Shown here: one piece after another, positions 3,381 to 58,120 of the stretch
How positions within the stretch are numbered: the stretch's first letter is position 1
How the letters are laid out: every line of letters starts with the position of its first letter
Origin: a virus
Taxonomy: Duplodnaviria > Caudoviricetes
Direction: 5' to 3' (one strand)
IMG/VR virus record: IMGVR_UViG_3300021957_000042
Location: 1-58,459 of that record
Length of the DNA: 58,459 nt
The notes under the pieces: generated by a model
What the model saw: the letters and a program-made list of their open reading frames with translations, nothing else
Database searches by the model: none
What the model was told of the DNA's origin: nothing
Program-made: the position numbers and the translations under genes

Positions 3381-4514
3381 ATGAGAATTGATAATGAATT
3401 GAAACTGGATTACAGTGATGTCTTGTTGCGGCCTAAAAGATCGACTCTTGGTTCTCGCAAAGAAGTTTCTCTTAAAAGAGATTTTCGTAAAGTTAACTGG
3501 TCTGGTCTACCAATCATGGCTGCAAATATGGATGGTGTTGGTACAATTGAAATGGCGACCGAATTAGCCAAACAGAAAATGTTTACATGTCTTAAAAAAA
3601 CATACGACACAACACAACTTATTGAATTTTTTTCAAATAAACTAAATTGTCAACACACGGCAATGAGTATTGGAATCACAGATTATGATTTTCGTAAGTT
3701 CTGTGATGTTTATAGTATATGTCAAAATTTAAAATTCGTTTGTATTGATGTTGCCAATGGTTATAGTGAAAGATTTGTTGACTTTATTAAAAAAATTCGT
3801 GAAGTTGATTCACAAGGAATATATGATGCAAAGGCAAATGATACATTTCGAAGACACAATCCTTTGTTCATCATTGCAGGTAATGTTGTAACTGGTGAAA
3901 TGACAGAACAATTGATTCTGAATGGTGTTGATATTGTTAAAGTTGGAATTGGACCGGGAAGTGCATGTACCACTCGCATTCAAACTGGAGTTGGATATCC
4001 TCAATTAAGTGCCGTAATTGAATGTGCTGATGCTGCACATGGTCTTGGTGGATTGATCATTGCTGATGGTGGTTGTACATGTCCTGGTGATGTTGTCAAG
4101 GCATTTGCTGGTGGTGCAGATTTCGTGATGCTTGGTGGTATGTTAGCTGGTCATGTTGAAGGTGGTGGTCAAATCATTGAAAAACATTATGTCACAAACG
4201 AAATTGAATACACCTCTGAAGATTATCCTCAGTATGAATTAGTTCGTGAGACAAAGAAGTTTGTCGAGTTCTACGGCATGAGCAGCAAGAAGGCAAATGA
4301 CATTCACTTCGGTGGTCTGAAAGACTATCGGGCCGCTGAAGGTCGTGAGGTGCGGGTGCCTTATCGTGGTGAAGTTGCTAATACTGTTCAAGAAATTCTT
4401 GGTGGTCTCAGAAGTGCCTGCACATATGTTGGTGCAGATCAATTAAAAGACTTGACAAAATGCGCCACATTTGTTAAAGTATCGAATCAGTACAACACAA
4501 CTTTCTCTGCATAA
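3381..4514 (+). CDS. guaC: GMP reductase
   Basis: [73 protein letters not shown]. Confidence 0.95.
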
Positions 4515-38741: not shown

Positions 38742-39386
38742 ATGTTAAAACCATTACCAATTATTTTTAAAGAGATATCAGACGCACCGACTCATCTTGA
38801 AAAAGTTCAGACATTAAAGAAAAATCGAAATGCAATGGTTGATTTGTTGCTTGAACTTACTTTTAGTAGAGATGTTATGATTACAGGTTTGCCCGAAGGT
38901 AAACCAGAAACAGTCTCAGGAGAAGCATCATTATATAATGCTCATTTGTTATATGCAAATCGCCGGCAAATTGAAATGTTTATCAATAATAATACGGCAC
39001 ATCTCAATTCAATGAAAAGAGAAAGACTTTTTTTAGATCTTATTGAGAATTTAGATCCATCTGAAGTTGTTTTATTGTGTGAAGTTAAAGATCGAAAGCT
39101 TACAAGTTTTCCTGGAATCACTCGAACAGTTATTGAAAAGATTTATGATTGGCCACTTGAGACAGTTGGTACTCCAGTAGCGCCAGAACCTGCACCAGTT
39201 GAAGAAGTTCGGGCTCCTGTAGCAGAACCTGCCCCGGTTGAAGAACCTGTGACAGCAGAACCAGAGGTTAAAGAAAAACCTGTGAAGAAAACAACAAGAA
39301 GAAAGCCAGCGGCAAAGAAAACACCGGCTAAAAAGCCAGCAACAAGGAGAAAGAAGCCAACTGCAAATACAAGTTCAACTTCTTAA
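38742..39386 (+). CDS. Conserved T4-like hypothetical protein with P/A/E and K-rich tail
   Basis: LPEG.P, KRERLF...ENL...E...L..VKDRKL..FPGIT; histone-H1-like C-terminus. Confidence 0.75.
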   Translation: MLKPLPIIFKEISDAPTHLEKVQTLKKNRNAMVDLLLELTFSRDVMITGLPEGKPETVSGEASLYNAHLLYANRRQIEMFINNNTAHLNSMKRERLFLDLIENLDPSEVVLLCEVKDRKLTSFPGITRTVIEKIYDWPLETVGTPVAPEPAPVEEVRAPVAEPAPVEEPVTAEPEVKEKPVKKTTRRKPAAKKTPAKKPATRRKKPTANTSSTS

Positions 39387-39698
39387 AATATTTTTTTCAA
39401 ACCAATGCAATATTTCAAAAGCAATTTCTGACATTTTATCTTTCAGCCCGATTTCATCAAACTTTGTTACGGCAGATTTTAAATCTTTATTGATTTGCCG
39501 TTTTAAGTCTTCCTCTTGAAATTCTTTCATATTTTCGGCAGTTAACATAATTGTTATTTTGATGATATCAGAATCATTCTCTTTATCTTTGATATAAAAA
39601 TAATAATTTGTTTTATCATTGTCAACTGTATCAATATACCTTTGAATATCTTTTATTTCTTCTCGCAATTGATGCCGAAAAATTCGAAATGTTTTCAT
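39375..39698 (-). CDS. Putative internal virion protein
   Basis: N-terminus MKTFRIFRHQLREE resembles the T4 capsid targeting sequence. Confidence 0.65.
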   Translation of the reverse strand: MKTFRIFRHQLREEIKDIQRYIDTVDNDKTNYYFYIKDKENDSDIIKITIMLTAENMKEFQEEDLKRQINKDLKSAVTKFDEIGLKDKMSEIAFEILHWFEKNILRS

Positions 39699-39699
39699 A

Positions 39700-40797
39700 T
39701 CATCCTAGGTCAAAAAGAATACTATCTGTAGGAAGTTCAAATAAAGTTCTCGGATAAACTTTATAGATCTTTTTACCCGCCTTTGTACTGCTTGCAGCTT
39801 CGATTTTATAACGCATTTGAATCAAAGGTTTATTATTAGTTGTTTCACGAATAATAATTGTTGGATCACCCTCGACTTTTGCGTGTGCTGTGAAATTAAA
39901 CTTACGAATATTTTTTTCAAATTTCTTTTCAAACCTTAAAGATTGTGCTTTCTTTTTATCAATCTTTACAAATTCAATATACTGATGTTCATCTTTTGTC
40001 ATGTGTTTACGAATAAATTTAATCAAATGTTCGACAAGGTCAATTTCACCAGAAGTTGATAACTGATTTATTTTGCTTACAATTTTTGTAAACATTGGTT
40101 TAATTGCATTACGAAGCATACTCTTTTGTTTTTCAAGTTGTGGATCTGCTCTTGTTTCATATTCAATCTTCTCATTAAAGTCACCAATATTTCGAATAAA
40201 CTCTGATTTTAATGAAGCAATATCAATATCAAATCCTTCTCGCCATAATGTATGTTGTTTATCAAATGACACACCACTAACCTGACCGAACTGTTCACCA
40301 CCTTTAGTCTTCAATGAAATTTGATTCTTTGATCGTTTACCATCAAAGACAAGTGCAATATCAACTTTTGTACCTTTTTGATCTTTTGTACCTTCACCTT
40401 TGACTTCAATCTTATTTTTTTTATTGTTCATATAATAAACTTTTGCCTGCAAGTTTAATCGGCGAGTTGTATTCACATACTCAATGCAGGCGTCAAAGAT
40501 ATCAGAAAATTGAGGCCAGTTTTTCTTTGAAGATAGATAAGTAGTTGCCTTTTGAGGTATGCTAATATCTAATTCAATAGTATCAACTGTAACATTATCT
40601 CGATCTTTTCTTGTTTCAGTTTTTTTATGTTGAATCATGATACGGTCTAACGCTTTTTCAACATCACTTTTTGAAACTTTTTGTTCTGGTTTCACCAAGA
40701 ATCTTGCTGCAAGTGCTGATGCAAAGATTGCTTCAGCAACATCACCACGATTATATTCAGGCGACTCTAATAGAAACGTTTTAAAGTTTGTTATCAT
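39700..40797 (-). CDS. Putative internal virion protein with PD-(D/E)xK-like nuclease motif
   Basis: N-terminus MITNFKTFLLE; GDVAE, KVDI...QISLK pattern. Confidence 0.6.
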   Translation of the reverse strand: MITNFKTFLLESPEYNRGDVAEAIFASALAARFLVKPEQKVSKSDVEKALDRIMIQHKKTETRKDRDNVTVDTIELDISIPQKATTYLSSKKNWPQFSDIFDACIEYVNTTRRLNLQAKVYYMNNKKNKIEVKGEGTKDQKGTKVDIALVFDGKRSKNQISLKTKGGEQFGQVSGVSFDKQHTLWREGFDIDIASLKSEFIRNIGDFNEKIEYETRADPQLEKQKSMLRNAIKPMFTKIVSKINQLSTSGEIDLVEHLIKFIRKHMTKDEHQYIEFVKIDKKKAQSLRFEKKFEKNIRKFNFTAHAKVEGDPTIIIRETTNNKPLIQMRYKIEAASSTKAGKKIYKVYPRTLFELPTDSILFDLG

Positions 40798-40832
40798 TTT
40801 TTATTTCTTTCTACAATTATTGAAATGGTATC

Positions 40833-40880
40833 TTACCAGGCTTCTTCTATATATACTCGGAATTCTTTAAATGTTTTCAT
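40833..40880 (-). CDS. 15-aa mini-ORF MKTFKEFRVYIEEAW (capsid targeting sequence only)
   Basis: Translated by hand; ATGA overlap with the stop of the upstream gene. Confidence 0.55.
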   Translation of the reverse strand: MKTFKEFRVYIEEAW

Positions 40881-42466
40881 GTGTCTTTTTGTGAATTAAC
40901 ATATTCTTGTCCCTCTTTTTCTGCTCGTTGTTTTGCGGCACGGAATGCTTGAATCACATTTTCATCTTGTTTGTTCCATTTGTTTTCATACATTCTTAGT
41001 GACTGTCGAATATCAAGCAATGGTGAACCTACACTCTTAGGATCACGATTTCCTTTCTGACGAACTAATTCTTCAAGACCAAAGATGATTGTTTCTGGTG
41101 TAATTTTGCATTCAGGCCCTTTTGATAGATAAACAGTTAAAGTATCAGGTTTTTCTTTGAGCGCAATTTTCATACAATTATTGATTACTTCTTTCATATG
41201 CCCTGTGCGGTAAAAGTCTCTGACTGTATGTGGTTCTAATTTTGCTAATATTTTCAGAACGTCTCCGCTCACTATAATACTTTGATTTCTTAGCTTCTCG
41301 AAGAAACGCCACAGACTAACACTCTCTTGTCCTTGAACGATATCACCGTTCTCAACCTTCTGAAGAAATTTAGCTTTACCTTCATCCGTTTTTTCTTCTT
41401 GGTATTTTACAATAGGTGGTTTTTTATCTTCATATGTTTTGTTCTCAATAATCTCAAGAACTTTGTATCCTCTTCTTGCCAAGAAAACTGCTTGAATTGG
41501 TTCTGCAGGATGAATCACTCTCTTACCACTTCGATCAGCAATTGAATCATAACCAATATTTGCCAATAAAACTGCCCAAGCATTTGCAAATGGATTTGTT
41601 TTGCCCTTTTCTTTCTTATCACCAGATGGTTCATAGATATGTGCGGCAGTCATCTCTGCTTTATCGCCTTTCATCTTTTGAACTTTAGTGAACACCTTGC
41701 TTAACAATTCAGCCGGAACTCTTTGTGGTTTATCAGGATCATAGTTTTGTTCAACATCTTCTTTTGAACCATAAATCCACCATGCTGACATTCTTGGCAT
41801 ATCTTCACCAATTCGGAAGTTTCTTTGATATGCTCCTTTTTCACCAGCAGTTACATTACTAGTAAGTGATTTCTTTTCATGAGCCAAAGCAACTAATGCT
41901 GAACACAATCTTGATGCATTCCAGAATTGCATTCCTGGTAGATCATTTGATGCTCGAGTAAATGCATAACGAATTGTGGCACAAACGATCAAGAAAATTA
42001 AATGCTCATTCTTGACATTCAAAATCTTCATCAGTTTTTGAGTGGTATATTTTGCAATCTTTTCAGTATCACCAGCAAGTTTAGCATTTGAATATTCACC
42101 AGAACCAACATCGTCAATATAATTTTTACCTTTACGCTGAAGTACAGCAATCTTTGGCATATGACCAGCAAATGGCACATTGAATCTTTTCCAACCTTTT
42201 CCTGGAACATAGTGGTGAAACACTTCAACCATCGGATAGGTATAGATACCATTTGGTGTATTATATCTTGACTTTGTATTCAGACCTACTTGAGCAGCAT
42301 TGTAATCATCTTTACCTGTTTCAGTAAAGTCCTTTGCATTTGTAATAAAAGTAATAAAGATATCATCATTATCTTTATATTTCTCTAATGCTTGCACAGG
42401 AAACTGCTTCACATTCTGTTCGGGATTACGTCTAGCCTCGGTAATAAAACTACGAAAAGATTTCAT
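40877..42466 (-). CDS. Putative internal virion protein, unknown enzyme (possible ART-like fold)
   Basis: N-terminus MKSFRSFITEA; TPNGIYTYP, VPFAG, GYDSIAD..IHPAEPIQAVF. Confidence 0.65.
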   Translation of the reverse strand: MKSFRSFITEARRNPEQNVKQFPVQALEKYKDNDDIFITFITNAKDFTETGKDDYNAAQVGLNTKSRYNTPNGIYTYPMVEVFHHYVPGKGWKRFNVPFAGHMPKIAVLQRKGKNYIDDVGSGEYSNAKLAGDTEKIAKYTTQKLMKILNVKNEHLIFLIVCATIRYAFTRASNDLPGMQFWNASRLCSALVALAHEKKSLTSNVTAGEKGAYQRNFRIGEDMPRMSAWWIYGSKEDVEQNYDPDKPQRVPAELLSKVFTKVQKMKGDKAEMTAAHIYEPSGDKKEKGKTNPFANAWAVLLANIGYDSIADRSGKRVIHPAEPIQAVFLARRGYKVLEIIENKTYEDKKPPIVKYQEEKTDEGKAKFLQKVENGDIVQGQESVSLWRFFEKLRNQSIIVSGDVLKILAKLEPHTVRDFYRTGHMKEVINNCMKIALKEKPDTLTVYLSKGPECKITPETIIFGLEELVRQKGNRDPKSVGSPLLDIRQSLRMYENKWNKQDENVIQAFRAAKQRAEKEGQEYVNSQKDT

Positions 42467-42490
42467 TTGATTATTTTGAAAAAATTAAAA

Positions 42491-42530
42491 ACTAAATATT
42501 GATATAAATTATGTTAAAGTATTTATCAAT
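42491..42530. promoter_or_regulatory. Back-to-back late-type motifs between divergent operons
   Basis: CTAAATA on + strand (42492) and GATAAATA on - strand (42520-42527). Confidence 0.5.
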
Positions 42531-42547
42531 TCTTAGTGGAGAAAAGA

Positions 42548-42799
42548 ATGCCAGCTTATGATTACTACTGTGAAAAATGTGACCAATCTTTCGAGCTTTT
42601 CCGAAAAGTTGCAGAAAGAAATAATACTAACAACGAAGAGTGTGATCGCAATGATTGCAATCTACAACTAAAGCCTGCATCACCTTTAATCGGATACGAT
42701 AGTTTTTCCTTAGCCGGAAGAAAGCCTACGGATAGCTTTCGAGACCGATTAAAAGAAATTAAGAAAAATGTACCAGGCGCTCAAATTAACACTATATAA
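42548..42799 (+). CDS. FmdB-like zinc-ribbon protein
   Basis: MPAYDYYCEKCDQSFE; typical upstream neighbour of phoH in T4-like phages. Confidence 0.8.
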   Translation: MPAYDYYCEKCDQSFELFRKVAERNNTNNEECDRNDCNLQLKPASPLIGYDSFSLAGRKPTDSFRDRLKEIKKNVPGAQINTI

Positions 42800-42915
42800 C
42801 TCAACAGGAGGATTTGGTTAACAATACTTATTAATCTCACTCAGGTCTTTTTGATCATTACTGAGTGAGTAAAAGAACCTGAGTAATTCTTATACATAAA
42901 GTTACGGAGTTACTT

Positions 42916-43710
42916 ATGTCAAGAAAGAAAGCACAATCTTCTGAATTCAAGAATAGTTTGAATCTGAAAACAATTGAACCATTGAATAATGCACAGAACT
43001 CATTATTCGAAGCATTTTATGATGGTTACAATATTATATCAATGGGAACAGCCGGCACAGGCAAATCCTTTTTATCGATATTTCTTGGATTAGAGGCAGT
43101 GTTTGACCCGCAATTATCTTTACATAAAGTTCTAATCTGCCGTTCTTGTGTACCCTCAAGAGATATTGGTTTCTTGCCAGGAACAGAAGAAGAAAAGATT
43201 GCAGTTTACAAGCGGCCTTATGTGTCAATTGTAAATGAACTTTTCCGTCGAGATGATGCTTGGGAAATTCTTGAAAAGAAAGGTATTGTTGAATTTTGTT
43301 CAACATCTTTTTTGAGAGGAACGACCATTGACCATACAGTACTATTTGTTGATGAAATTCAAAATCTTGGTTTCAATGAACTTCATAGTGTTGTAACTCG
43401 GTTAGGAAAAAATTCAGCCTTAGTTATGGCTGGTGATTTCTTCCAAATGGATCTAGACCAAGATGAAAGCGGACTCAAAGACTTTTTTGAAATTTCAAAG
43501 AAAATGAATGGTTTTAAAACTATTCATTTTCAAGAAACAGATATTGTTCGTAGTGATTTTATACGAGAATATATTATTGCTAAGAACGCATATGAAAGAG
43601 AAAAAAGTCAACGCAAAATATTCAATGGTCACACCGTACATCGCACATCAATTAATACTGTTCAACTGAAGGGTAAAGAATTTGTTGTTGAACACTCTCC
43701 TGTAAATTAA
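42916..43710 (+). CDS. phoH: PhoH-like ATPase
   Basis: GTAGTGKS, RDIGFLPG, FLRGTT, DEIQN, TRLG, GDFFQMD, DIVRS. Confidence 0.95.
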   Translation: MSRKKAQSSEFKNSLNLKTIEPLNNAQNSLFEAFYDGYNIISMGTAGTGKSFLSIFLGLEAVFDPQLSLHKVLICRSCVPSRDIGFLPGTEEEKIAVYKRPYVSIVNELFRRDDAWEILEKKGIVEFCSTSFLRGTTIDHTVLFVDEIQNLGFNELHSVVTRLGKNSALVMAGDFFQMDLDQDESGLKDFFEISKKMNGFKTIHFQETDIVRSDFIREYIIAKNAYEREKSQRKIFNGHTVHRTSINTVQLKGKEFVVEHSPVN

Positions 43711-43727
43711 CATAAATATTATTATTC

Positions 43728-43753
43728 AGGGATGTTTCGGCATCCCTATTTTT
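43728..43753 (+). terminator. Intrinsic terminator with UUCG loop
   Basis: agggatgt-ttcg-gcatccct plus T-rich tail. Confidence 0.75.
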
Positions 43754-43773
43754 AATATTTAAACTTCGCTTAA

Positions 43774-44172
43774 ATGCAAACCAAAAAAGAATACGAACTT
43801 TACATTCAGAAAACTGTAGCATATATTCAATCAAGAAAAATGCAGGTTGTTGGTGTTGATAAACTGTATGATAATGAAGAAACACCTAACAATCTAGTTG
43901 CACGAATAGCCTTGTTTAAACATTTGCCATTATTATTGGAATTATATACAGATGAATCTTTAGGATTATATGTCAATATGTTTGACTGTGATCCATTAAC
44001 TGCTTCAGTTTTTACTAAAGAACTTATGCCATTGCGCTTAACTCACATTGATGGTTTTGTTGCAATGAAAACAATGAATGGTGAACTACAAACTTTATTG
44101 TTTGGTGAAGATGCATTAGAGCAATATAAAAAAGAAAAAGATAGAGATTTACAATCAACACACTTAAATTAA
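43774..44172 (+). CDS. hypothetical protein
   Basis: 132-aa ORF. Confidence 0.65.
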   Translation: MQTKKEYELYIQKTVAYIQSRKMQVVGVDKLYDNEETPNNLVARIALFKHLPLLLELYTDESLGLYVNMFDCDPLTASVFTKELMPLRLTHIDGFVAMKTMNGELQTLLFGEDALEQYKKEKDRDLQSTHLN

Positions 44173-44176
44173 AAAT

Positions 44177-45562
44177 ATGAAAGCTTTTCACGAATTTCTA
44201 CTTGAAGGTATTAAAAAAGAACAAATCAATCGAGTGTTCGCAAACAAAGATTTTAAGATTGGTCTTGAATTTGAATTTTATAATGAAGATTTTGTACGAG
44301 AAAATAATCGTCCATCAACAAAAGAAGTATTAGTCATGGCTGATTATGTTGAACTAATTAATGAAACCAAAAAACAAAATGTTAAGATTGTCATGAAGAA
44401 TAAAACTTCAAAGGCATCTCCGAATCGAAAGATTATAACACCTGAACAAATTATGGATGATTTCTCAAAAGCTAACCGCTCAGTTTTGTTTGGCTTTTTT
44501 AAAAGAAATGGTATTAATGAAAAAGAATTGGTTGAATTAACATACCGATATATTAATTCTGCATTAGAAAAATCAGAAAAATATATGGCTCATGGTGATT
44601 TTCGAAGAGACATCTTTGAAAAATATGCAGGTGAGAACAAAGTCCTGCAGCAATATATGAATGTGATCATCAAGGCAGTTCAAACAGAAGGTGCTGATAT
44701 TGACAAAGAGATTTTAAAATACTATAAAAAAGACAATGCAATTCCTTCTTTCATACGAGATTACAAAGTAATTGTGAAAGGTAAGAATTCTGATCCGACT
44801 AAGTGGACAATTCTACCAGACTTATCTGTTCTTTCAACTTTAGGTGGTATTGAATTTGTTTCACCAGTTATGACGCCAGAACAAACCTTGAAAGCAACTG
44901 ATGAAATGTTCAAGTATATTCGTAAAGTCGGTAACACACAATCTCACCATACAGAAGATCAAGATGGTAAAGGTGGTGATAAACGAAATGCTCAATGCGG
45001 ACTACATATCAATATCTCAACAACACCTGAAAGAATGAAAGAGTTTGATCCTGTAAAGTTTATCATCTATTCAAATGAAGGACAATTTAATTCTGAAAAG
45101 CTTTTTGGTGATCGTAAAGATGCCGATTATATTGGTAGTGTTCTGTCTGACTTGAGAAAACATTATAAAAGAAAAGTTGGTATGTTAAGTGGTGGTGATG
45201 ACCAGGCATATGTTAATACACTTATAAAAAATAAAATGTTTCATGGTGTCAAATATCTACAAAGCTTAACTCGTTTTATCAATGACAAATATTCAAACGT
45301 GAATCTACAGAACTATTCATTTGATAATGCTTCAAAGAGAAGATCGAAATCAGAACGAATTGAAGTTCGTTATTTTGGTGGTCAGGATTATGAAAAGAAG
45401 TTTGAAACTTTTCGTAGAGTTTTGGGTGAATTATTATATGCACTTGAAGTCGCAACTGATCCAGAGTTGAATAAAAATGATTATCAAAAGAAACTATATA
45501 AGTTATTATCAAGTGGCGCAGACGATAAACCAAAACTATCACTCACGAAAAATAAAAAATAA
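44177..45562 (+). CDS. Putative amidoligase with capsid-targeting-like N-terminus
   Basis: MKAFHEFLLEG; IGLEFEF, PDLSV, GIEFVSP, CGLHINIS, IEVRYFGG. Confidence 0.8.
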   Translation: MKAFHEFLLEGIKKEQINRVFANKDFKIGLEFEFYNEDFVRENNRPSTKEVLVMADYVELINETKKQNVKIVMKNKTSKASPNRKIITPEQIMDDFSKANRSVLFGFFKRNGINEKELVELTYRYINSALEKSEKYMAHGDFRRDIFEKYAGENKVLQQYMNVIIKAVQTEGADIDKEILKYYKKDNAIPSFIRDYKVIVKGKNSDPTKWTILPDLSVLSTLGGIEFVSPVMTPEQTLKATDEMFKYIRKVGNTQSHHTEDQDGKGGDKRNAQCGLHINISTTPERMKEFDPVKFIIYSNEGQFNSEKLFGDRKDADYIGSVLSDLRKHYKRKVGMLSGGDDQAYVNTLIKNKMFHGVKYLQSLTRFINDKYSNVNLQNYSFDNASKRRSKSERIEVRYFGGQDYEKKFETFRRVLGELLYALEVATDPELNKNDYQKKLYKLLSSGADDKPKLSLTKNKK

Positions 45563-47540: not shown

Positions 47541-50500
47541 ATGAAGTATTTTTATATTTTATTCTTATCAATTATATCATTTACATTCACCAGTTGTGAA
47601 ATCTGTATCGGCCCAGTATGTGAGGGTCGAATTATCTATGATGACATTGAACTACCAAAAGATGATAATAGTGATTCCGGTGGTGGTTCCGGTAGTTCTG
47701 CGCCAGATCCTGTAACAGATTTATCTGCAACCTCACCTTATTCAAATCAAGTTGATCTCAGTTGGACTGCAATCACAGGTTCTGATAATTATACAATTCA
47801 TTTCAGTACAGATAATTCATCCTTTAGTGCAATAGTTCCTGATGTCACAGGAACTACCTACTCACATACTGGTAGAACCGCATCGACAACTTACTACTAT
47901 TATGTTATAGCAAACAATTCAACCGGTCCAAGTACACAATCAAACACGGCAAGTATCACTACCTCAGGCGCTCCAACTGTTACACTTACCGCAACTGCAT
48001 CCGTTGCTGAAGGAAATTCAGGCACAAAAAGTCAAACAATTACCGCAACACAAAGTGCCACATCAACTACAAACACAACAGTCAATCTCTCCACCTCAGG
48101 TACTGCTTCTGATAATGGCACTGACTACACCTTAGATAATTCAACAATTCTCATTACCGCAGGCTCGACAACAGGTACAACTTCTGTTACAATTGTTGGT
48201 GACCGTATTCAAGAAAACAATGAAACAATTGTTGTTGATATCGATAATGTTACTGGTGGTGATAACGCCACTGAAAGTGGTACACAACAAGAAACAATTA
48301 CGATCACAAATGATGACATTGCGGGCTTCAGTTTCACCATTTCAACAAACAACACGGTCACTGAATCAGGAGCAGGTGATAGTTTTGATGTTGAACTTGA
48401 TACAGAACCCACAGCAAATGTGACGGTCACAATTACCGATAATGATAGTAGTGAGATTTTAGTTTCACCTACCACACTTGTCTTCAGTTCTGGTAATTAT
48501 AGCACAGCACAAACGATCAATCTAACAGCAGTTGAAGATAATGCAACTGATGGTAATCAAACTGTAACAATCACGTTGGCTGGTAGTTCTGTTGATAGTT
48601 TTTACAATGGTGCTGCCGCACAAACAATAGCAACAGTGGTGGATTCAGGTAATGAACCACCAAGTGTTCCTGTTTCGAACTTATCAGCAACTGCTGTTTC
48701 AACAACACAAATTGATCTCAGTTGGTCGGCAAGTGCCAATACAGATAACTATACAGTTTACTTTAGCACAGACAATTCATCCTTCAGTGCGATTTCACCA
48801 GTAGTCACTAGTACATCTTATTCACATACAGGAATAACGCCAGGAACTACTTACTATTATTATCTGATTTCAAACAATGCTTATGGAGTGAGTGGTCAAT
48901 CAAATCGTGCCAATGATACAACGACCAGCATTCTTGTTGACTTATCAGCAGATATCACTTCAGTCACAGAAGGAGATACTGGTTCACAGACAATCACACT
49001 TACAGCAACTCAAAGCCAAACTGCTACAACAAATACCACTGTCACTTTGTCAGCTTCGACTGCTCCGGCTGATGCTGCTATATCAACGGGAACGGCAAAC
49101 ATTGATAAAGATTATGCTTTTGTTTCATCCACAATTACAATTACTGCCGGTTCTCTTACAGGCACAACTACTCTAAATGTATATGGTGATTATCTTGATG
49201 AAGATAATGAAACCATTTATATAAACATGTCAGGTGTTAGTGGTGGTGATGGTGCCTCAGAGAATGGAACACAAACGGCAAACATTTCAATTGTTGATGA
49301 TGATAATACAGAATTCAAATATAGCATTTTAGGAGGTGATAGTGTTGCTACAGAAGGCGGTTCTGGTATCACTTATTATATCACTTTGAATTTATATCTT
49401 GATTCAAGACCAGATGGAAATGTTTTAGTTGATTTCAGTTTAGAAGATTCAACACAACTCAGTTTGTTGGATGGACCAACATTGACGTTTACACCATCAA
49501 ATCATATGAACACACAAGTTGTTCGTGTTGCTGCTGTTGATGATCTATATGATGATGGTAACGTAACTTCGAAAGTTTATATTGATCCCAATGGCGGTAC
49601 TGCCGACACAACTGGCTACGCAAGTTTGTCACAGAAAAGTAAAAATATCACAGCAGAAGATAATGATGCGCCAGGTCCTGTGCTTGATAATGTCACCGCA
49701 GGCATTCAACAAAACTATATTTCTTGGCAAGCATTTGCTGGTGAAGATGGTGGCTATCGTTTGTATTATCGTACAACAGATGATCAACACACAGGTTCAG
49801 ATAGTTATATTACGATTGGTACAGGCATCACAGAATACTATCATAGCGGACTTGATAGTGGCCTAACCTATTATTATCGTGTAACTGCTTTTGTTTCTGC
49901 CGCAGAATCTTCAATGTCAAATTCTCTAAATGGTGTACCAACAACACCTTGGCCTGGTTGTACATCAACAGGACCTTCTGCTTCACCTTCAGATCCAACA
50001 CTTGAAGTTCATTATCCCTTTGAAAACAATGGTGAAGATTTGCTTGATAAAAATGCGAACAATGTGTATGACCTGACAAATGTTCATCCATCAAATACAA
50101 CTTTCAATTATGTTGCTGGTTGTGCTGGTGGTAAGGCACTCTATATTGATAGCACATCAGGTATTTACGCAACCAGTGCGTTTACAAGTTCAGCAGTTGG
50201 TGGGAATCTGAATTCTGGCAACTTCACAATTTCTTTCATGGCAGTTGCTGATGCGGATATGGAAACAAATAGTTCTGCTCTCAACACCGGATTCAAAGAC
50301 CTTCATTCACCTTTTGGAAGTTATGCTACAAAATCTCAATTTGATATTGGTAATTCAGATCAAATAAGATTTAGATCTCCTAGTTCAAACACGGGAGATC
50401 CTTCCGCACTAACTCAAAACACTTGGCATCATATTGTCGCAACATCAAATTCAGGACAAGATGCTGTTTTATATAAAGATGGTGTTGTAGTTGATTCGAC

Positions 50501-52172
50501 AAATACTGGAAATTTTGATGCTGATTTCTTTGGTTTAGCAATTGGTATAAACCGAGATGAAGGTTGGACAAATCGTTTCTGGAAAGGATACATTGATGAT
50601 GTCCGTGTTTATTCAGAAACAAAGTCTGTTGACCAAGTTCGAACCATTTGTATGGAATATGATGGCTGTTCATACATACCAGAAACACCAACACTCACCG
50701 CAACGGCAAGAGCAAGTTCAATCTACCTGTCTTGGAATTTGCCAACTGGAGCAGATAATGTTACAATCTATTGGCGAGAAAGTACTGGCTTTGAAGGTTC
50801 ACCAACCGCACCAACAGCAAGTAATAATGTGATCAATGCTGTTGATAATCAAACATCTTACTTTCTGGCGAACTTAGACGTTACAAATTATCATCATTTT
50901 GTCATTCTTGCAAACAATCGAAATGGTAGCAGTAGTCCAAGCTCAGTAGCAGCAACAGCAAATGTACAACCACTCAATGCTCGTTTTCGATCAACTTCGA
51001 TCAATGGTAACACTTTAGTATACATCAATCGAGATAATGAACTTTGGGTGCGAGGAAACAACTGGTCACCTTCTGAGGGCGGAAATGCTGAAATTTATTT
51101 CTCTCCAAGGAATAGCAATTTTGGTGAGCAAAATTCAGTTCATGCAGATAGTATTTCAAATGCTTCAGTGGTCGGTGCTGGTTCAAATAAGATTTCTGCT
51201 CTTTTAGATAATGGTAGTGTTTATCATTTTCACACAAATAATTCTTCCTTGTTCTGGGATAGTTATAATACTGAGACCACACCTACAAACATACCAGGTG
51301 GCACAACCATTGTTGATATGAGACATAGTTTAAAAGCAGTTTATTATTTGCTAAGTGACGGCACGATTCTTGCGAAAGGCAGAAATCATGTAGGTCAACT
51401 TGGAAATGGTACAACTACAGATGAAACTGGTTCAACAGGTGTGTTTGTTTCCGGGATCAATACAGCAACTCAAATTGCCGTTGGTATACAACATGCCTGT
51501 GCGTTGTTGTCGAATGGACAAGTATGGTGTTGGGGTGATGGAGATAAAGGTGAGCTTGGAGATGGATTAGATAGAGATTCTTCAACGCCTGTTCAAGTTT
51601 CTTTGCCTACGAATACTGCTACAATGATTGATGGTACTTATAATGATACATTTGCCTTGATGTCTGATGGGACTGTTTACGGTTGGGGCGAAAATCGTTC
51701 GGGTAAAATCAAGTGTTCAACCGATAATTCTCAAGTTCTCTCACCTGAACGTGTGTCTGGTCTATCAAACATAATTGATATTGCCGTTGGATATGAAACC
51801 GTTCATCTGTTAGAAGACGATGATAATGATGGACGTGGAACTCTGTACACCTGCGGTCGTGCCAACAAGAATTATGACCAAACTAACAATGCTGCCTTTC
51901 GTTTCTGGAATGATAATAATGGGGACATCAACTATATCTCCAGTTATAACGGTGTCGGAAACGCCATCAAAGCTGACGAATATAATAATCGTTTGATTCA
52001 GATTGATGGAGATCGATATTCACTTCTTCTAATTAGGGATGACCTCACACTGATGGGTATCGGTCAGTCACAACACAAGCAATTTTCTATCACTGATAAT
52101 AATGGCGCCAATCGAATGGTGATTTTTGATGATAATTTGCAACCGATTGAAAGTACAAATCCTATCGATTAG
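47541..52172 (+). CDS. Giant adhesin-like lipoprotein (FN3, Calx-beta/Ig, LamG, RCC1 repeats)
   Basis: FTSC lipobox; DLSW..TYYYYV FN3; EG..DE.NET Calx-beta; WHHIVAT/GYIDDVRVY LamG; HACAL..G.VWCWG RCC1. Confidence 0.85.
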   Translation: MKYFYILFLSIISFTFTSCEICIGPVCEGRIIYDDIELPKDDNSDSGGGSGSSAPDPVTDLSATSPYSNQVDLSWTAITGSDNYTIHFSTDNSSFSAIVPDVTGTTYSHTGRTASTTYYYYVIANNSTGPSTQSNTASITTSGAPTVTLTATASVAEGNSGTKSQTITATQSATSTTNTTVNLSTSGTASDNGTDYTLDNSTILITAGSTTGTTSVTIVGDRIQENNETIVVDIDNVTGGDNATESGTQQETITITNDDIAGFSFTISTNNTVTESGAGDSFDVELDTEPTANVTVTITDNDSSEILVSPTTLVFSSGNYSTAQTINLTAVEDNATDGNQTVTITLAGSSVDSFYNGAAAQTIATVVDSGNEPPSVPVSNLSATAVSTTQIDLSWSASANTDNYTVYFSTDNSSFSAISPVVTSTSYSHTGITPGTTYYYYLISNNAYGVSGQSNRANDTTTSILVDLSADITSVTEGDTGSQTITLTATQSQTATTNTTVTLSASTAPADAAISTGTANIDKDYAFVSSTITITAGSLTGTTTLNVYGDYLDEDNETIYINMSGVSGGDGASENGTQTANISIVDDDNTEFKYSILGGDSVATEGGSGITYYITLNLYLDSRPDGNVLVDFSLEDSTQLSLLDGPTLTFTPSNHMNTQVVRVAAVDDLYDDGNVTSKVYIDPNGGTADTTGYASLSQKSKNITAEDNDAPGPVLDNVTAGIQQNYISWQAFAGEDGGYRLYYRTTDDQHTGSDSYITIGTGITEYYHSGLDSGLTYYYRVTAFVSAAESSMSNSLNGVPTTPWPGCTSTGPSASPSDPTLEVHYPFENNGEDLLDKNANNVYDLTNVHPSNTTFNYVAGCAGGKALYIDSTSGIYATSAFTSSAVGGNLNSGNFTISFMAVADADMETNSSALNTGFKDLHSPFGSYATKSQFDIGNSDQIRFRSPSSNTGDPSALTQNTWHHIVATSNSGQDAVLYKDGVVVDSTNTGNFDADFFGLAIGINRDEGWTNRFWKGYIDDVRVYSETKSVDQVRTICMEYDGCSYIPETPTLTATARASSIYLSWNLPTGADNVTIYWRESTGFEGSPTAPTASNNVINAVDNQTSYFLANLDVTNYHHFVILANNRNGSSSPSSVAATANVQPLNARFRSTSINGNTLVYINRDNELWVRGNNWSPSEGGNAEIYFSPRNSNFGEQNSVHADSISNASVVGAGSNKISALLDNGSVYHFHTNNSSLFWDSYNTETTPTNIPGGTTIVDMRHSLKAVYYLLSDGTILAKGRNHVGQLGNGTTTDETGSTGVFVSGINTATQIAVGIQHACALLSNGQVWCWGDGDKGELGDGLDRDSSTPVQVSLPTNTATMIDGTYNDTFALMSDGTVYGWGENRSGKIKCSTDNSQVLSPERVSGLSNIIDIAVGYETVHLLEDDDNDGRGTLYTCGRANKNYDQTNNAAFRFWNDNNGDINYISSYNGVGNAIKADEYNNRLIQIDGDRYSLLLIRDDLTLMGIGQSQHKQFSITDNNGANRMVIFDDNLQPIESTNPID

Positions 52173-52288: not shown

Positions 52289-55200
52289 ATGAGAAGCTTG
52301 ATTGTTCTACTTTCACTCATTATGATCTCCTTTTCATTTATTAGTTGTGACCAACTTCCTGAAGAAGGTACTATTATCTATGACGTAGATTTTCCAAGAG
52401 CGGATTCTTGTGAAGCAACGGGAACTTGTAATTCTGGCGGTGGTGGCGGTGGTGGCGGTACTTATGTACCTCCTGTAATCACACCAGGAATCCCGAGTGT
52501 ACCATCAGGCGTCACAGTTGTCAATCCTACATTCACCGAAACAGAAGGAAACACACATACAGGAACAACAATAGTTCTTGATTCTGCTCCTTCAGGAACA
52601 GTGACAATCAGTTTTACTTCTGGTGATACCTCTGAAATTACAGTCAATAGTCCTTCATTGACATTCACTCCTGCCAATTACAGCACACCTCAAGTAATTG
52701 TCATGACTGCGGTAGAAGACTTCATCAACATTCCCACCGATTCAAATACAACTACTGGCATTGCCTTTAGTATCTCATCAACAAATACATCAGACCTCGT
52801 TCATGGAAGAATTGGAAATTTAGTAGGTTATGTTTTAGATTCAGGCAGAACACTCTTCACAATTGGCGGAGGAACACCAACAATACCTGAAGGTCAAAGT
52901 GATAATTCATCTTATACGTTTGTTCTGAATGATATGCCGAATGGTGTGGTCACCGTCACTCTTACTTCGACAGATACAAACGAAGTTCTCATAGGTTCGC
53001 CATTGGTTTTTACACCAGGGTCGTACAATGTTCCGCAGAATCTTTCCCTGACTGGAGTGGAGGATTACATAGTCGATGGACTTCAAGACACGAATATTAC
53101 AGTGACTTATACCAGTACCGACCCTACGGACATCCAAGATGGTGAAACAAATACTTTTATAGTCAATACAACAGATAGTGGTCAAAGTAGTGTTACTTTA
53201 GATGATGCGAATCCTTCTGTTGCTGAAGGTAGTTCTTATACAGGTACAATTGTTCTTGATGCGGCTCCAGCCGGAACAGTTACAATCACACTGACTTCTG
53301 ATGATGTAGGTGAAGCACAACTTGTACCAGATCCAACAGTCTTGACATTCACGCCCGTCAACTGGAATTCACCTCAGAATTATACTGTGAATGGTATTGA
53401 AGATTTAGAGATTGATGGTCCTGTTGAAACAAACATCAACATTGTGGCAAGTTCAACAGATCCAACAGATTCAATTCATGGCTTGAATACTTCGTTTACA
53501 ATGACCACAACTGATTCTGGCATTGATGGACCATACACAATCAATCCAACAACACCTTCAGTTACAGAAGGTACTACAGATAATATGACATTTGTTCTGA
53601 ATTATCCACCAACAGATACTGTAACAATCACGTTGACTTCAGGTGGCGCAGATGAAGCAGGTATTTCACCCACAACATTGACATTCACACCTGTCAATTG
53701 GAATTCACCTCAAACAGTGATTGTAACAGGTGTTGAAGATTTTGTAGTTGATAATGATCAATTAACTGCAATCACAACAACAATTTCTTCGAATGATTCA
53801 GTTTACGATAATTCAACAGGCTATTTCAATATCACAACAGTAGATAGTGGAAGAGGTCCTACTTCTATCACAAGTGCTGTAGCGGGAGATCAACAAGTCA
53901 CGCTCAACTGGAGTGGTCCAACTGGAATGGATGGCTATGTAATTTATTATACAAATGATGGTTCAACACCAACACTCGCAAGTGATAATGTTTCAGGTAT
54001 TTCTGGTACAGTCACATCTTATGTTCATAGTGGCCTGACCTCTGGCTTGACATACACTTATCGAATTGTTGCCAATTTAGGTTCTGATTCTTCTGGTCTT
54101 TCACCAACAGTCTCGGCAAATCTAAAACCAGCAACTCCTACTGGGCTGACTGCAACAAACCCTGGCAGTGGCACATCCATCAATCTGACTTGGAATGCTT
54201 CCACTGGTGCTGACAACTACACCGTTTACTGGACTGATGATCCAAGCACACCAATCGATCCATCCAATCCTGCTACTTATGATGGCTCCACTACTGTCAC
54301 GGGAACCTCTACAACTGCTACAGGCTTGACAGCCGGAACGCCTTATGACTTCACAATAGTTGCCACAAATAACACTGCTGGCAGTAGTCCTCCTGCTACT
54401 GAAGTCAATGCCACCCCGACTCTGATAATGCCAGCAGCCATCGATAATGTGACTGCCTATCACGGATTCTATGGTGATGCGACAATCTACACGGCTAGTA
54501 ACCCAGATAGATATTCTATTTTCCCTCCTTCATATGCCATAACATGGAATGCTCACCCTGACTTTGTTTATTCTGCCAATGGAGATTATTACAAAGTTTT
54601 TATCTCAGATAATTTGAGTCAACCCATTGATCCAACAGACAGTAGCACTTATATCAGTCAACAATGGGCTACAACGAATCAAACGGTTATTACAACTCGC
54701 CCCTTCATCACAATCGATGGCGTCACTCATAATGATGGCTTCTTGGAGAATACACCTCTAAGAATTGCTGTGGTTTTTGAGGATTATTCAAAAGGACGCA
54801 TTCTATCACCAGTAACAGAGGTCACACCAACAATGGCTTCTGAAGCCTATCGTCAATGGGGTGACCTAAGAATTCATGGTGGCTTCTTTGCGGCTGGTGA
54901 TAACAGCACACTCTATGGCTTTGGACGTTCTAATGGTAGTGACCCTATTCGCATTGAACACAAAGATATGGTCAATGTAGGTGAACGAGCAATCTTTGAT
55001 GGTGCTTGGCTCAACAGTGATGTCTTTCCCCTGATGAGTAATTCTGCTGGCTATGATTATATGTTTTTGACTTGGTACCAACCCGAAAAACCATTTTTTA
55101 ACCACAACTTCTCTACTAACGGAACATACTTTAAGAGATCCCGCACCTCTGATTGGCGGCTTGAATCAAACGCAATTTCAGCAGGTAGCGCAGTGGGAGA

Positions 55201-58120
55201 TTACGATTTCGGAATGGAGTTTCAAGCAGAAGATACGGTAGGACTGATCATTCAGCACAGTAGTAATCGCACAGGAACATTGAATGGCCCAACAGACTAT
55301 GCTGCTGTTAGTTATGCAGATTATGCTGCTGGCAATGGGCTATATTCAGCAGAGCATACAGGTACTTCACACTGGTTAGACAATTCTTCGTATGCTGGGA
55401 TGACGTTGTTCTCAACCAAAAACATGTATCAAATCAATCTTGCCAATGCGGATGCTGCAATCTCAAAAGTGGCGATTCCGTTTAAAAGTCCAGATAATCT
55501 GACAGTCACTCCATCTGGATCAAACATCAATCTCAGTTGGGATAACTCGACTTCTTTCACGAACACTTATGACATCTATCGAAGCACAGACAACAGCACA
55601 TGGAGCTTAGTCACTAGCATTAGTGGATATACAAACACTACTTATACAGACTCTTCTCTAGCTGATGGCACTTACTACTATAAGATTGGAGCGAATGGAA
55701 CTTACTTTACCCCAGACAATTCAACAGTAGCTTCGGGCGTGATTTCTACTACTCCGGCAGCCCCTGTTCTCAATTCTGTCACTGCCGGTGTTCAACAGAA
55801 CACAATTGCTTGGAGTGCTTACACGGGAGCAACTAGTTACAAGTTATACTGGGATACTTCAGCATCTGTATCAACAAGTGATAATCTGATCACCATTAGT
55901 GATAACACTTCAACCAGTTATATTCATTCTGGTAGAACAGCAGGTACTCAGTACTACTATAGACTAATTGCGACAACTTCTGGAGGAGATTCAGGACTTT
56001 CAAATGAACTGAGTGATACACCAACTGCTCTTGTTGGATGTACAAGTTCAGGTGCTGTAGCAGATAATGATCCTGACTTGTTAGTGCATTATGCTTTTGA
56101 AGGAAACTTAGAAGATGTTGAGGATACTAACGGTGATAATCGCTATGACCTGACAAATGAAGAAGGAACAATGCAATTTGCTCAAGGTTGTGCCCAGGGT
56201 CAGGCTGCTTATATTGATTCTGCTTCTGGATATGGAGTGAATAATAACTTCACAAGTACAAATGTTGGTGGAAATTTAGCAAATGACAACTTCAGTATCT
56301 CACTATGGGTAGCGAAAGACGGAGATATGGCAGACTATTCTTCTGCATTCAATACTGGCTTTTACAATGAACACACACCAACAGGAGATCAAGAAAAAAC
56401 TCAAATTGATATTCAGGCAGGTAAGTTTCGAGCAATCTCAAATAGTCCCGGTAATGGTAAAAAGGTTAGATCATCCTTCACACCAAATATGGACCAGTGG
56501 TATCATGTTACACTCACTCATAGTCCACCAAGCACTGTTTCATTATATACTGATGGTACCCTACAAGAAACCAACACGAATATGAATATAGATTTCTACG
56601 GTTTGGTTGTTGGTTTGAATCGAAGCAGAAGTGTAGGAACACTCAACTGGAAAGGATATATAGATGAAGTCAAGGTCTTCAACAGAACCTTTAGTGCGGA
56701 TGATGTTGCTGATGATTGTATGAAATCTGAAGGTTGTCCTTATGTTCCAGCAACAGCACCGACACTCTCAGCAGACGCAAGGGCTCAGGCAATCATGTTG
56801 ACTTGGAATTTGCCCGGTGGAACAGACAACGCAACCATCTATTGGAGAACAAGTGGTGGTTCGTTTGAAGGATCACCAACAGCACCTACAGCCAGTGATA
56901 ATGTGATCAATGTGACAAATGGTCAGACAAGTTACTTGCTGACTGGCTTGACTGGTGGTGATTACTATCACTTTGTGATTTTGGCAAATAATCGAAATGG
57001 TAGCAGTCCTGTCAGTTCTGTATTGGGCAATGTTCAGCCGACAAGTTTTATTGCTAACACCTTTGATTCTGGAAACAACGGAGGTATCTGTAAAATTCAA
57101 AATGATGGCAGTCTAAAATGCAAAGGCCGCAACAACTTAGATCAGTTCAATAATGACAGGATTGACCGACCAAGTGCCACTGACATTTTTGGTATCACGA
57201 ATGCGGAGACTATCACATTCTCTTCAAATAAGATTGGTGTTGTTCAGTCAGATGGGAGCTACCAGCATCGTGGAGACAATGATGGTATGAGTACACGCTC
57301 AAGTCCAGTAACTGGTGTGACGAATCCAGTGCAAGTGGAGCATGGATATAATTTTGTGGCTTACTTGATGAGTGATGGGACAGTCCGCACAAGAGGTGCT
57401 AATTACAATGGACAACTGGGTGATGGCACAACCAACAATGAAACTTCTGGTTCCGTTCAAGTCAGTGGAATCACCACAGCAAATAAGATTTCTGCAGGAC
57501 AGTATCATGCTTGTGCGCTCTTGACGAATGGTCAGATCTGGTGTTGGGGTGATAATTCATTTGGTGAGTTAGGGGATGGAACAACAACACAAAGAGAAAC
57601 TCCTGTTCAAGCAGGATTACCGACAGATACTGCTGTTGGTATTTTTGTAAGCCAAAGAACATCTGCGGCTGTTCTAGCTAACGGCAAGGTCTACATTTGG
57701 GGTTCTAATGTTAACAGCAGAGCAAAGTGCAGTAACAATACAAGTGCCATTTCAAATCCAAGAGAACTCACTGTTATTTCAAATGTGAAGCAGATTGATT
57801 TCGGATTTGGTCACTCTGTAATTCTTACAAATGATGGCAATGTCTATACATGCGGCACAGTCTACTCCACATCAAATGTAGCTGGAAATGCCACTTTCTT
57901 TGCAAGCATGGGTACTGAGGCAAAGACAAATGGAGCTATTCTGATGGATGATTATCAAGGCAGAGTGATTGAAGTCCGAGCAGACAACTACAATTCATAT
58001 ATGTTATTGGATAACGGAAGTCTTGCTTGTATCGGAGACAACAATTACGGGCAATGTAATAACGATGGTGCAACGATGGGAACAGATCAGCTAACACCAA
58101 TCATTATTCCTGATATGTAA
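52289..58120 (+). CDS. Giant adhesin-like lipoprotein paralog (4 Ig/Calx-like repeats, FN3, LamG, RCC1)
   Basis: FISC lipobox; L.FTP.N/S.N/S.PQ repeats; shares C-terminal architecture with the 47541 protein. Confidence 0.85.
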   Translation: MRSLIVLLSLIMISFSFISCDQLPEEGTIIYDVDFPRADSCEATGTCNSGGGGGGGGTYVPPVITPGIPSVPSGVTVVNPTFTETEGNTHTGTTIVLDSAPSGTVTISFTSGDTSEITVNSPSLTFTPANYSTPQVIVMTAVEDFINIPTDSNTTTGIAFSISSTNTSDLVHGRIGNLVGYVLDSGRTLFTIGGGTPTIPEGQSDNSSYTFVLNDMPNGVVTVTLTSTDTNEVLIGSPLVFTPGSYNVPQNLSLTGVEDYIVDGLQDTNITVTYTSTDPTDIQDGETNTFIVNTTDSGQSSVTLDDANPSVAEGSSYTGTIVLDAAPAGTVTITLTSDDVGEAQLVPDPTVLTFTPVNWNSPQNYTVNGIEDLEIDGPVETNINIVASSTDPTDSIHGLNTSFTMTTTDSGIDGPYTINPTTPSVTEGTTDNMTFVLNYPPTDTVTITLTSGGADEAGISPTTLTFTPVNWNSPQTVIVTGVEDFVVDNDQLTAITTTISSNDSVYDNSTGYFNITTVDSGRGPTSITSAVAGDQQVTLNWSGPTGMDGYVIYYTNDGSTPTLASDNVSGISGTVTSYVHSGLTSGLTYTYRIVANLGSDSSGLSPTVSANLKPATPTGLTATNPGSGTSINLTWNASTGADNYTVYWTDDPSTPIDPSNPATYDGSTTVTGTSTTATGLTAGTPYDFTIVATNNTAGSSPPATEVNATPTLIMPAAIDNVTAYHGFYGDATIYTASNPDRYSIFPPSYAITWNAHPDFVYSANGDYYKVFISDNLSQPIDPTDSSTYISQQWATTNQTVITTRPFITIDGVTHNDGFLENTPLRIAVVFEDYSKGRILSPVTEVTPTMASEAYRQWGDLRIHGGFFAAGDNSTLYGFGRSNGSDPIRIEHKDMVNVGERAIFDGAWLNSDVFPLMSNSAGYDYMFLTWYQPEKPFFNHNFSTNGTYFKRSRTSDWRLESNAISAGSAVGDYDFGMEFQAEDTVGLIIQHSSNRTGTLNGPTDYAAVSYADYAAGNGLYSAEHTGTSHWLDNSSYAGMTLFSTKNMYQINLANADAAISKVAIPFKSPDNLTVTPSGSNINLSWDNSTSFTNTYDIYRSTDNSTWSLVTSISGYTNTTYTDSSLADGTYYYKIGANGTYFTPDNSTVASGVISTTPAAPVLNSVTAGVQQNTIAWSAYTGATSYKLYWDTSASVSTSDNLITISDNTSTSYIHSGRTAGTQYYYRLIATTSGGDSGLSNELSDTPTALVGCTSSGAVADNDPDLLVHYAFEGNLEDVEDTNGDNRYDLTNEEGTMQFAQGCAQGQAAYIDSASGYGVNNNFTSTNVGGNLANDNFSISLWVAKDGDMADYSSAFNTGFYNEHTPTGDQEKTQIDIQAGKFRAISNSPGNGKKVRSSFTPNMDQWYHVTLTHSPPSTVSLYTDGTLQETNTNMNIDFYGLVVGLNRSRSVGTLNWKGYIDEVKVFNRTFSADDVADDCMKSEGCPYVPATAPTLSADARAQAIMLTWNLPGGTDNATIYWRTSGGSFEGSPTAPTASDNVINVTNGQTSYLLTGLTGGDYYHFVILANNRNGSSPVSSVLGNVQPTSFIANTFDSGNNGGICKIQNDGSLKCKGRNNLDQFNNDRIDRPSATDIFGITNAETITFSSNKIGVVQSDGSYQHRGDNDGMSTRSSPVTGVTNPVQVEHGYNFVAYLMSDGTVRTRGANYNGQLGDGTTNNETSGSVQVSGITTANKISAGQYHACALLTNGQIWCWGDNSFGELGDGTTTQRETPVQAGLPTDTAVGIFVSQRTSAAVLANGKVYIWGSNVNSRAKCSNNTSAISNPRELTVISNVKQIDFGFGHSVILTNDGNVYTCGTVYSTSNVAGNATFFASMGTEAKTNGAILMDDYQGRVIEVRADNYNSYMLLDNGSLACIGDNNYGQCNNDGATMGTDQLTPIIIPDM

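Follow-up and report, generated by a model that had tools for sequence, protein, structure and literature searches.

What is a reading frame of 15 codons, encoding little beyond a leader, doing between two genes whose products bear leaders of the same type? The mini-ORF that raises this question lies in a window of 58,459 bases, which comprises a whole IMG/VR record, is estimated to be 32% complete and has a G+C content of 35.6%. The window encodes a T4 replication and late-transcription set (UvsW-like and Dda-like helicases, a gp55-like late sigma factor, SbcCD-like gp46/47, sliding clamp, clamp loader and a RegA-like repressor) as well as PhoH and a CobS-like protein, and is read as an uncultured marine T4-like phage. 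Fibre or surface proteins may be encoded by two very large plus-strand ORFs (1543 aa, 47541..52172, and 1943 aa, 52289..58120), which contain fn3, Laminin_G_3, Calx-beta and RCC1-repeat domains. A gp21-type protease was sought with PF03420 in the window, which is 32% complete, and in four related fragments, each time with no match; as none of 14 control genomes was matched either, the search is uninformative.

A first-pass annotation had described the mini-ORF as a capsid-targeting tag that stands between two tagged genes and is coupled to the upstream one by an ATGA overlap. It had proposed that the frame may be the scar of a deleted cargo, an empty slot showing that cargos are swapped behind tags, or a free peptide, and had named an assembly error and a full-length gene in relatives as the points to check. 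The arrangement itself was confirmed in the sequence (minus strand, 40880..40833), and the features of the locus are as follows.

40877..42466, minus strand: 529-aa gene of no known family, leader MKSFRSFITE and then A, conserved core from ARRNPEQN (sequence and family alignment)
40877..40880, minus strand: ATGA overlap of the TGA stop of the 529-aa gene with the ATG of the mini-ORF (sequence; the same overlap in L001, L002 and L003)
40833..40880, minus strand: 15-codon mini-ORF, MKTFKEFRVYIEEAW-stop (sequence); 14 of its 15 residues match P0013 and P0014, which continue; unchanged in contigs of four runs
within 40833..40880, minus strand: leader of the mini-ORF, MKTFKEFRVYIEE, and then A
40794..40832, minus strand: in-frame stretch past the TAA of the mini-ORF, D T I S I I V E R N K K and then TGA (translation)
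39700..40797, minus strand: 365-aa gene (phrog_33928), leader MITNFKTFLLE and then S, core from NRGDVAEAI
39375..39698, minus strand: 107-aa gene, leader MKTFRIFRHQLRE and then E; the homologue in L008 has the same leader
44177..45562, plus strand: 461-aa gene, leader MKAFHEFLLE and then G

Read along the minus strand from 40880 to 40833, the codons of the mini-ORF are ATG AAA ACA TTT AAA GAA TTC CGA GTA TAT ATA GAA GAA GCC TGG TAA. They specify a 13-residue leader with an I-E-E end, followed by A-W and directly by TAA. The mini-ORF sits between the 529-aa gene, which lies upstream, and the 365-aa gene, from which a spacer of 35 nt separates it; the 107-aa ORF begins one base past the stop of the 365-aa ORF.

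The leader type, M-K-x-F-x-x-F ... L/I-x-E, is common to the mini-ORF and four other genes. The motif M[KI][TSA]N?F..F.{0,4}[LI].E occurs in 5 of the 1418 ATG-started frames of at least 13 codons in the window, namely in the 15-, 107-, 365-, 529- and 461-aa ORFs, all within 39375..45562, and in none of 200 first-order Markov shuffles of the window; as the motif was written after these starts had been seen, the count is descriptive. The simpler motif MK[TSA]F..F matched four times, compared to a shuffle mean of 0.11. The first-pass annotation had singled out the mini-ORF as the closest T4-like start in the window, and this was borne out: over the first seven residues it shares 5 with the T4 tag, which reads MKTYQEFIAE (bioRxiv 10.1101/2021.01.19.427310), compared to 4 for MKAFHEF, 4 for MKTFRIF and 3 for MKSFRSF. 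An MKTFxEF start is found in at least 123 IMG/VR stretches, and most of the 80 that were fetched lie at ORF starts without an upstream in-frame ATG. In environmental viral contigs (L014-L093) such starts are often followed by (I/L/V/M)-x-E, and several read MKTFQEFI(A/L)EA.., which is very close to the T4 tag.

The boundary between leader and core is well conserved in the protein families of the locus. Among 37 sequences of the 529-aa family, E stands directly before the ARRNP core in 37 and L/I at the third-last leader position in 35, and the leader is exactly 10 residues long in 27. The small-protein family has I/V/L/M at the third-last position in all 19 leaders of at least 3 residues, and a conserved (A/K)W after the E. 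By analogy to T4, the leader is presumably a capsid-targeting propeptide, and the L/I-x-E boundary directly before the core in 35/37 homologues of the 529-aa protein supports this reading. The core of the 365-aa family (NRGD.AEAI) occurs behind at least five different T4-like leaders and also without a leader (P0029-P0042 and cyanophage S-RIM8). In P0038, P0041 and S-RIM8 it follows after only 2-8 residues with no leader motif, the untagged S-RIM8 homologue starting MAAEKIDANRGD. Tags and cargos are thus modular, and this part of the proposal that cargos are swapped behind tags holds; the part in which the mini-ORF is a slot for exchange does not, as the slot has not been refilled, because the 365-aa gene brings its own leader and start.

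Homologues of the 365-aa protein with 26-30% identity are present in Synechococcus myoviruses, and an IMG/VR scan gave no close relatives; as a lead only, the ESM Atlas places RE_HaeIII on 24% of the members of one cluster related to this protein. For the 529-aa protein it gives, again as a lead only, ART-PolyVal with a score of 0.77. The predicted structure of the 529-aa protein (m351318ae1782, mean pLDDT 82) had no PDB match at E ≤0.001 in Foldseek, and in a wide VIA search the only row over its N-terminal domain (residues 32-345) was a cyanophage A4 pre-ejectosome chain, whose Z of 7.1 is inside the tool's stated noise range. The 461-aa protein has a weak Amidoligase_2 match (21.9 bits compared to a cut-off of 22).

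What stands at the position of the mini-ORF in related phages? Three IMG/VR contigs, L001, L002 and L003, hold 529/540-aa homologues (70-74% identity), each followed by a 65- or 76-codon ORF that starts MKTF(S/T)(D/E)F and has an ATGA overlap with the upstream stop. These ORFs are the positional orthologues of the mini-ORF, and in them its reading frame is kept and extended. In L003, the ATGA-coupled ORF has 65 codons (MKTFTEFYSDIQNLKTPAGEASEHSEGQIEE followed by KWSEKRKRAINCDRPRGFSERASCQGRKKRQSGK; 5131..5328) and precedes convergent flank genes. In L001 and L002, the small tagged gene has 76 codons and a different, new arginine-rich tail. Here, the final seven codons of the small gene (KKRQSGK-stop) are immediately preceded by an inserted GIY-YIG/NUMOD3 endonuclease gene (4746..5453 in L001, the same in L002), whose ORF runs into these codons and ends with them; L001 is collinear with L003 from this point onwards.

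More distant relatives differ at this position. L006 (56% identity), which serves as outgroup, has no small ORF here, and because the outgroup lacks the small gene, the gene may not be ancestral. In L007 (27% identity), the next gene after the 529-aa homologue overlaps it by one base, is long and begins MNKFTQLYTQLLVE. L008, which is more closely related (88% identity on the 355-aa flank), has the same gene order, and its contig ends inside the 365-aa homologue, short of the mini-ORF position. A metagenome scan for relatives returned three loci, one of which is the same contig as L003. Among GenBank phages, neither megablast with 39300..42600 nor tblastn with the 529-aa protein gave a match.

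Intact homologues of the small protein were obtained by searching 5.8 billion proteins with the 65-aa protein as query. P0013 (58 aa), P0014 (43 aa) and P0043 (43 aa) start MKTFKEFRIYIEEAW, and 14 of these 15 residues equal the mini-ORF (V9 for I9); P0015 (58 aa) starts MKTFKQFRIYIEEAW and agrees in 13 of 15. P0013 reads MKTFKEFRIYIEEAWSEKRKREINCDRPRGFSERASCQGREKRKREREKRREKHARLY, P0014 has the same start and ends in ...ASCQGRNKK, and P0043, which was found on three contigs, is one residue apart from P0014 (Y for C). The tails of P0013 and P0015 are of the same kind as that of the small gene in L001/L002. Beyond the leader, all four proteins continue as SEKRKR..C..PRGFSERA(S)(C/Y)QGR.., a basic cargo of 28-43 residues, and I-E-E stands ahead of the conserved (A/K)W in P0003-P0015. 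P0044 (852 aa), which is listed in the cluster of P0014, showed no likeness to it by eye and was set aside. Together, the 65-76-codon genes of L001-L003 and the cargos of these four proteins support the first-pass proposal that the mini-ORF is the scar of a deleted cargo.

The missing part is a basic module of about 35 residues with two conserved cysteines (..KWSEKYKRSINC..PRGFSQRAHCQGRKK..). In an alignment of 20 sequences (A4), the invariant residues are E13, W15, S16, I23, C25, P28, G30, F31, S32, R34, A35, C37, G39 and K42 (P0013 numbering). Of these, the mini-ORF keeps only E13 and W15; the core residues S16-G39 of the module are absent, and the frame in the window ends at W15. No PRGFS-type or CxxP(R/K)G motif turned up when all six frames of the 58 kb were searched by regular expressions. 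The module itself is common: the A4 profile matches 2822 representative proteins among 1.84 billion at E ≤0.001 and 1862 at ≤1e-10, in which it lies at the N-terminus, internally or at the C-terminus of proteins 53 to 1123 residues long. In P0013-P0028 and the profile matches it is often found directly behind a T4-like leader. None of 10 module-family members scored above the curated cut-off of a Pfam model, and no PHROG model covered the module in 10 members; P0026 has a weak PHROG match (E 0.0018), outside the module, to a family of unknown function. Among 24 larger carriers that were scanned, 11 have a Pfam match at E ≤1e-4; some carry two such domains, and several matches fall under the curated cut-off. 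The domains are DUF5661 (three proteins), DUF5872 (two) and, in one protein each, DUF6321, ART-PolyVal, NT5C, nucleotidyltransferase domains, ParB_N, methyltransferase, ASCH, Pterin_4a and a TAT signal. A viral contig without other evident likeness to the window locus, L143, has a small gene (4001..4156) starting MKTFKEFREE followed by WSNKYKKSIDCSNPRGFSQRAHC.., and the leader-plus-module unit is therefore not limited to this phage lineage.

Is the cargo merely silenced by the stop, or is it gone? In local alignment, the 42 nt past W15 matched the cargo DNA within the shuffled null (score 13 compared to a mean of 12.8 for L003, and 11 compared to 13.2 for L001). Because this DNA scores no better than shuffle, a nonsense mutation alone, with the rest of the gene left in place, does not account for the stop; the cargo has been lost. 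Past the TAA, the frame stays open for 12 further codons (DTISIIVERNKK) and closes with a TGA, which forms an ATGA overlap with the start of the 365-aa gene. This stretch may be a remnant of the 3' end of the old gene, or plain spacer. P0014 has RNKK-stop as its C-terminus, the same four residues with which the frame past the TAA ends, and this four-residue match hints at a precursor of the P0014 type, a phage in which a 43-aa gene would have been stop-start coupled to the 365-aa gene. Pattern scans with EFRVYIEE, FRIYIEEAW and CQGRNKK-stop in IMG/VR and with FR[IV]YIEEAW in species genomes returned 0 stretches each. It is solely the comparison of the proteins that suggests where the break lies and in which order the events occurred.

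We also looked at the junction for signals. The mini-ORF contains TATATATA (40848..40855, minus strand, about 50 nt upstream of the start of the 365-aa gene), one base off TATAAATA, which we take to be the T4 late-promoter consensus. Exact TATAAATA matches number seven in the window compared to 4.36 expected, and none is near the mini-ORF; the ORFs that start at 18720, 33479 and 35718 have exact sites 35-58 nt ahead of them. Scans of 39200..42700 for sigma-70-like promoters and terminators remained at shuffle level, and repeats between the leaders were no better than many other short repeats of the region.

From these results, we consider it likely that a small, tagged internal-protein gene of a T4-like marine phage has left the mini-ORF as its 5' stump, which lies in a multi-leader locus and is stripped of the cargo part, and that the locus turns over fast, with the small gene hit by an endonuclease in L001/L002 and absent in L006. 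As related marine phages still have the whole gene, the stump would be a case of common gene decay at a locus that changes fast, and no novel type of element. The direction of change was probably loss in the window phage and not gain elsewhere. In relatives, the gene would comprise the leader (MKTF.EF ... I-E-E), then (A/K)W, then a basic two-cysteine module of about 30 residues (SEKRKR.I.C..PRGFSERA.CQGR..). In the window phage, everything past codon 15 would have been lost or replaced, TAA following directly, and the next gene, of 365 aa, would use its own leader and start. By analogy to T4, the prohead scaffolding core would bind the leader, and the prohead protease would remove it after L/I-x-E. 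If still translated by way of the ATGA overlap, as it may be, the 15-mer of the stump would at most be bound and cut as any tag, into a 13-mer and the dipeptide AW; because the cut would leave nothing else, such a product would deliver nothing, and the stump presumably has no function of its own.

Three other explanations have to be weighed against this one. Contigs assembled from metagenomes can hold errors, and DNA as AT-rich as this (35.6% G+C) commonly has short ORFs, so that a false stop or a random short frame might be suspected. The locus is well represented in public data: 18 of the 24 listed runs, which belong to 15 coded studies (P1-P15) from 2014-2025, hold at least 98% of the sampled 31-mers of 40300..41500. 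In Logan contigs of four runs, from three studies, the mini-ORF has neither a changed letter nor an indel. The contig of run X1 (39788-42600) has four differences, all outside the mini-ORF, and those of X12 (39300-41483), X19 (40789-40958) and X20 (40842-41177) have none; X1 and X12 may be the source sample, while X19 and X20 are not flagged as such. Across these contigs the mini-ORF shows no sequence variation, and the first-pass concern about an assembly error can be laid to rest: the stop is confirmed as genuine and not an assembly artefact, and the stump allele is widespread and stable. Identity in independently assembled contigs from four runs and three studies, with no indel in 39386-42600, a leader motif that appears in 0/200 shuffles, and a 14/15 match to the N-termini of real proteins that other samples yielded leave an artefact or a chance frame hardly credible. 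A translational relay, in which the peptide is irrelevant and ribosomes ending the 529-aa gene restart on the stump via ATGA to be released 35 nt before the 365-aa start, feeding the downstream tagged genes, would fit the ATGA overlap kept in the window and in L001, L002 and L003. It would also fit the head-to-tail arrangement of four minus-strand ORFs (529, 15, 365 and 107 aa) with gaps of at most 35 nt, and the region upstream of the 365-aa start, which offers only a purine-rich stretch and no clear GGAG. However, the in-frame TAA stops 35 nt short of the next ATG and thereby breaks the stop-start overlap in which the frame would otherwise end. Moreover, the RNA of 40765..40905 has no structure that translation from upstream would have to melt, its minimum free energy of -9 kcal/mol (z = +1.17) being equalled or bettered by 177 of 200 shuffles, and the A/G-rich stretch ahead of the mini-ORF ATG is 3 nt shorter than in relatives and lacks their GG. 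We therefore regard a relay as improbable.

The remaining alternative grants the peptide a role: made late, the free 15-mer would compete for sites on the scaffolding core or occupy the prohead protease, and so tune cargo loading. If this were true, the mini-ORF would act as a natural 'empty tag' that regulates head contents by setting the copy number at which the neighbouring tagged proteins enter the head. In sequence, a functional peptide would not differ from the stump, which keeps a complete leader (F4, F7, I11-x-E13), two residues past the predicted cut and an ATGA start; the allele is fixed in a population seen in 18 runs from 2014-2025; and in T4, according to section 2.6 of PMC9026906, a 10-residue tag alone suffices for targeting. 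However, the same leader normally bears a cargo in the intact homologues, EFRVYIEE occurred in no other IMG/VR contig in the pattern scan, and invariant persistence is equally expected of a neutral scar. For the one leader variant MKTFxEF, 80 of at least 123 stretches were fetched, and 3 of them held an ORF of at most 21 codons. None of the 3 stands where a gene of a tagged array begins: the first falls inside a 625-aa ORF in another frame, the second is on the strand opposite to a 146-aa ORF, and the third comes from a stretch that has no long ORFs. On balance, a free regulatory tag appears very improbable.

Read as the stump of a decayed gene, the mini-ORF matters little by itself, and its value is that of a marker. 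It marks an uncultured, widespread marine T4-like phage with a locus of genes bearing T4-like L/I-x-E leaders, and it marks that this locus breaks at or near the boundary of leader and cargo. We know of no virion proteome for these marine phages. Together with the 365-aa and 529-aa families, the stump could offer a route, from sequence only, to candidate head-packaged, injected proteins of marine phages. Such candidates could include anti-defence proteins, as T4 Ip proteins are described to be in PMC12373910.

How does the locus compare to known systems? Keyword searches, which are not proof of absence, returned no account of an ORF reduced to its tag, or of an array of tagged genes, in marine T4-like phages, and no internal-protein terms were found in PMC2993671 and PMC3037559. 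The nearest counterpart is the internal-protein hotspot of T-even phages. In T4, as laid out in sections 2.5-2.6 of PMC9026906, IPIII needs no more than its first 10 residues to be packaged; within the tag, residues 4 and 7 act in targeting and residues 8 and 10 in processing (section 2.6), and, in the same source, the prohead protease gp21 cleaves after L/I-X-E. The T-even hotspot is described as encoding unrelated injected proteins that have the leader alone in common (PMC9026906 sections 2.5-2.6 and 3.1; PMC12373910; PMC3012670 section 6), and T4 Ip1-3 are described there as blocking type IV restriction enzymes (PMC12373910; PMC3012670 section 6). The window locus likewise has a short leader with aromatic residues at positions 4 and 7 and an L/I-x-E end, and it is a variable cluster of unrelated cargos that share only the leader. 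In contrast, the mini-ORF (MKTFKEF) combines F4 with F7 where the T4 tag has Y4 and F7, which is a resemblance in sequence only. Its cut motif, I11-E12-E13, comes three residues later than in T4, at 11-13 and not 8-10. Past the cleavage site it has lost the cargo and has only A-W before the TAA, and its phage is an uncultured marine T4-like virus. Because it is without cargo, one defining feature, the mini-ORF would be a decayed member of the T-even internal-protein kind.

The kind of change also has parallels. In the hyperplastic regions of T4-type phages, according to PMC2839356 and PMC4122927, whole genes are replaced between conserved flanks from one close relative to another, partial genes can stay behind, and the swaps are linked to promoter-stem-loop cassettes; unlike such scars, the mini-ORF junction has neither promoter-like or terminator-like enrichment nor a stable RNA structure. 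The disruption of the small gene at its 3' end by GIY-YIG/NUMOD3 in L001/L002 resembles insertions of Seg-like free-standing GIY-YIG homing endonucleases in T4-type phages, whereas the window has no endonuclease at the mini-ORF, where the tagged 365- and 107-aa genes follow instead. From the insertion in L001/L002, we therefore take the small gene to have been struck repeatedly by mobile DNA.
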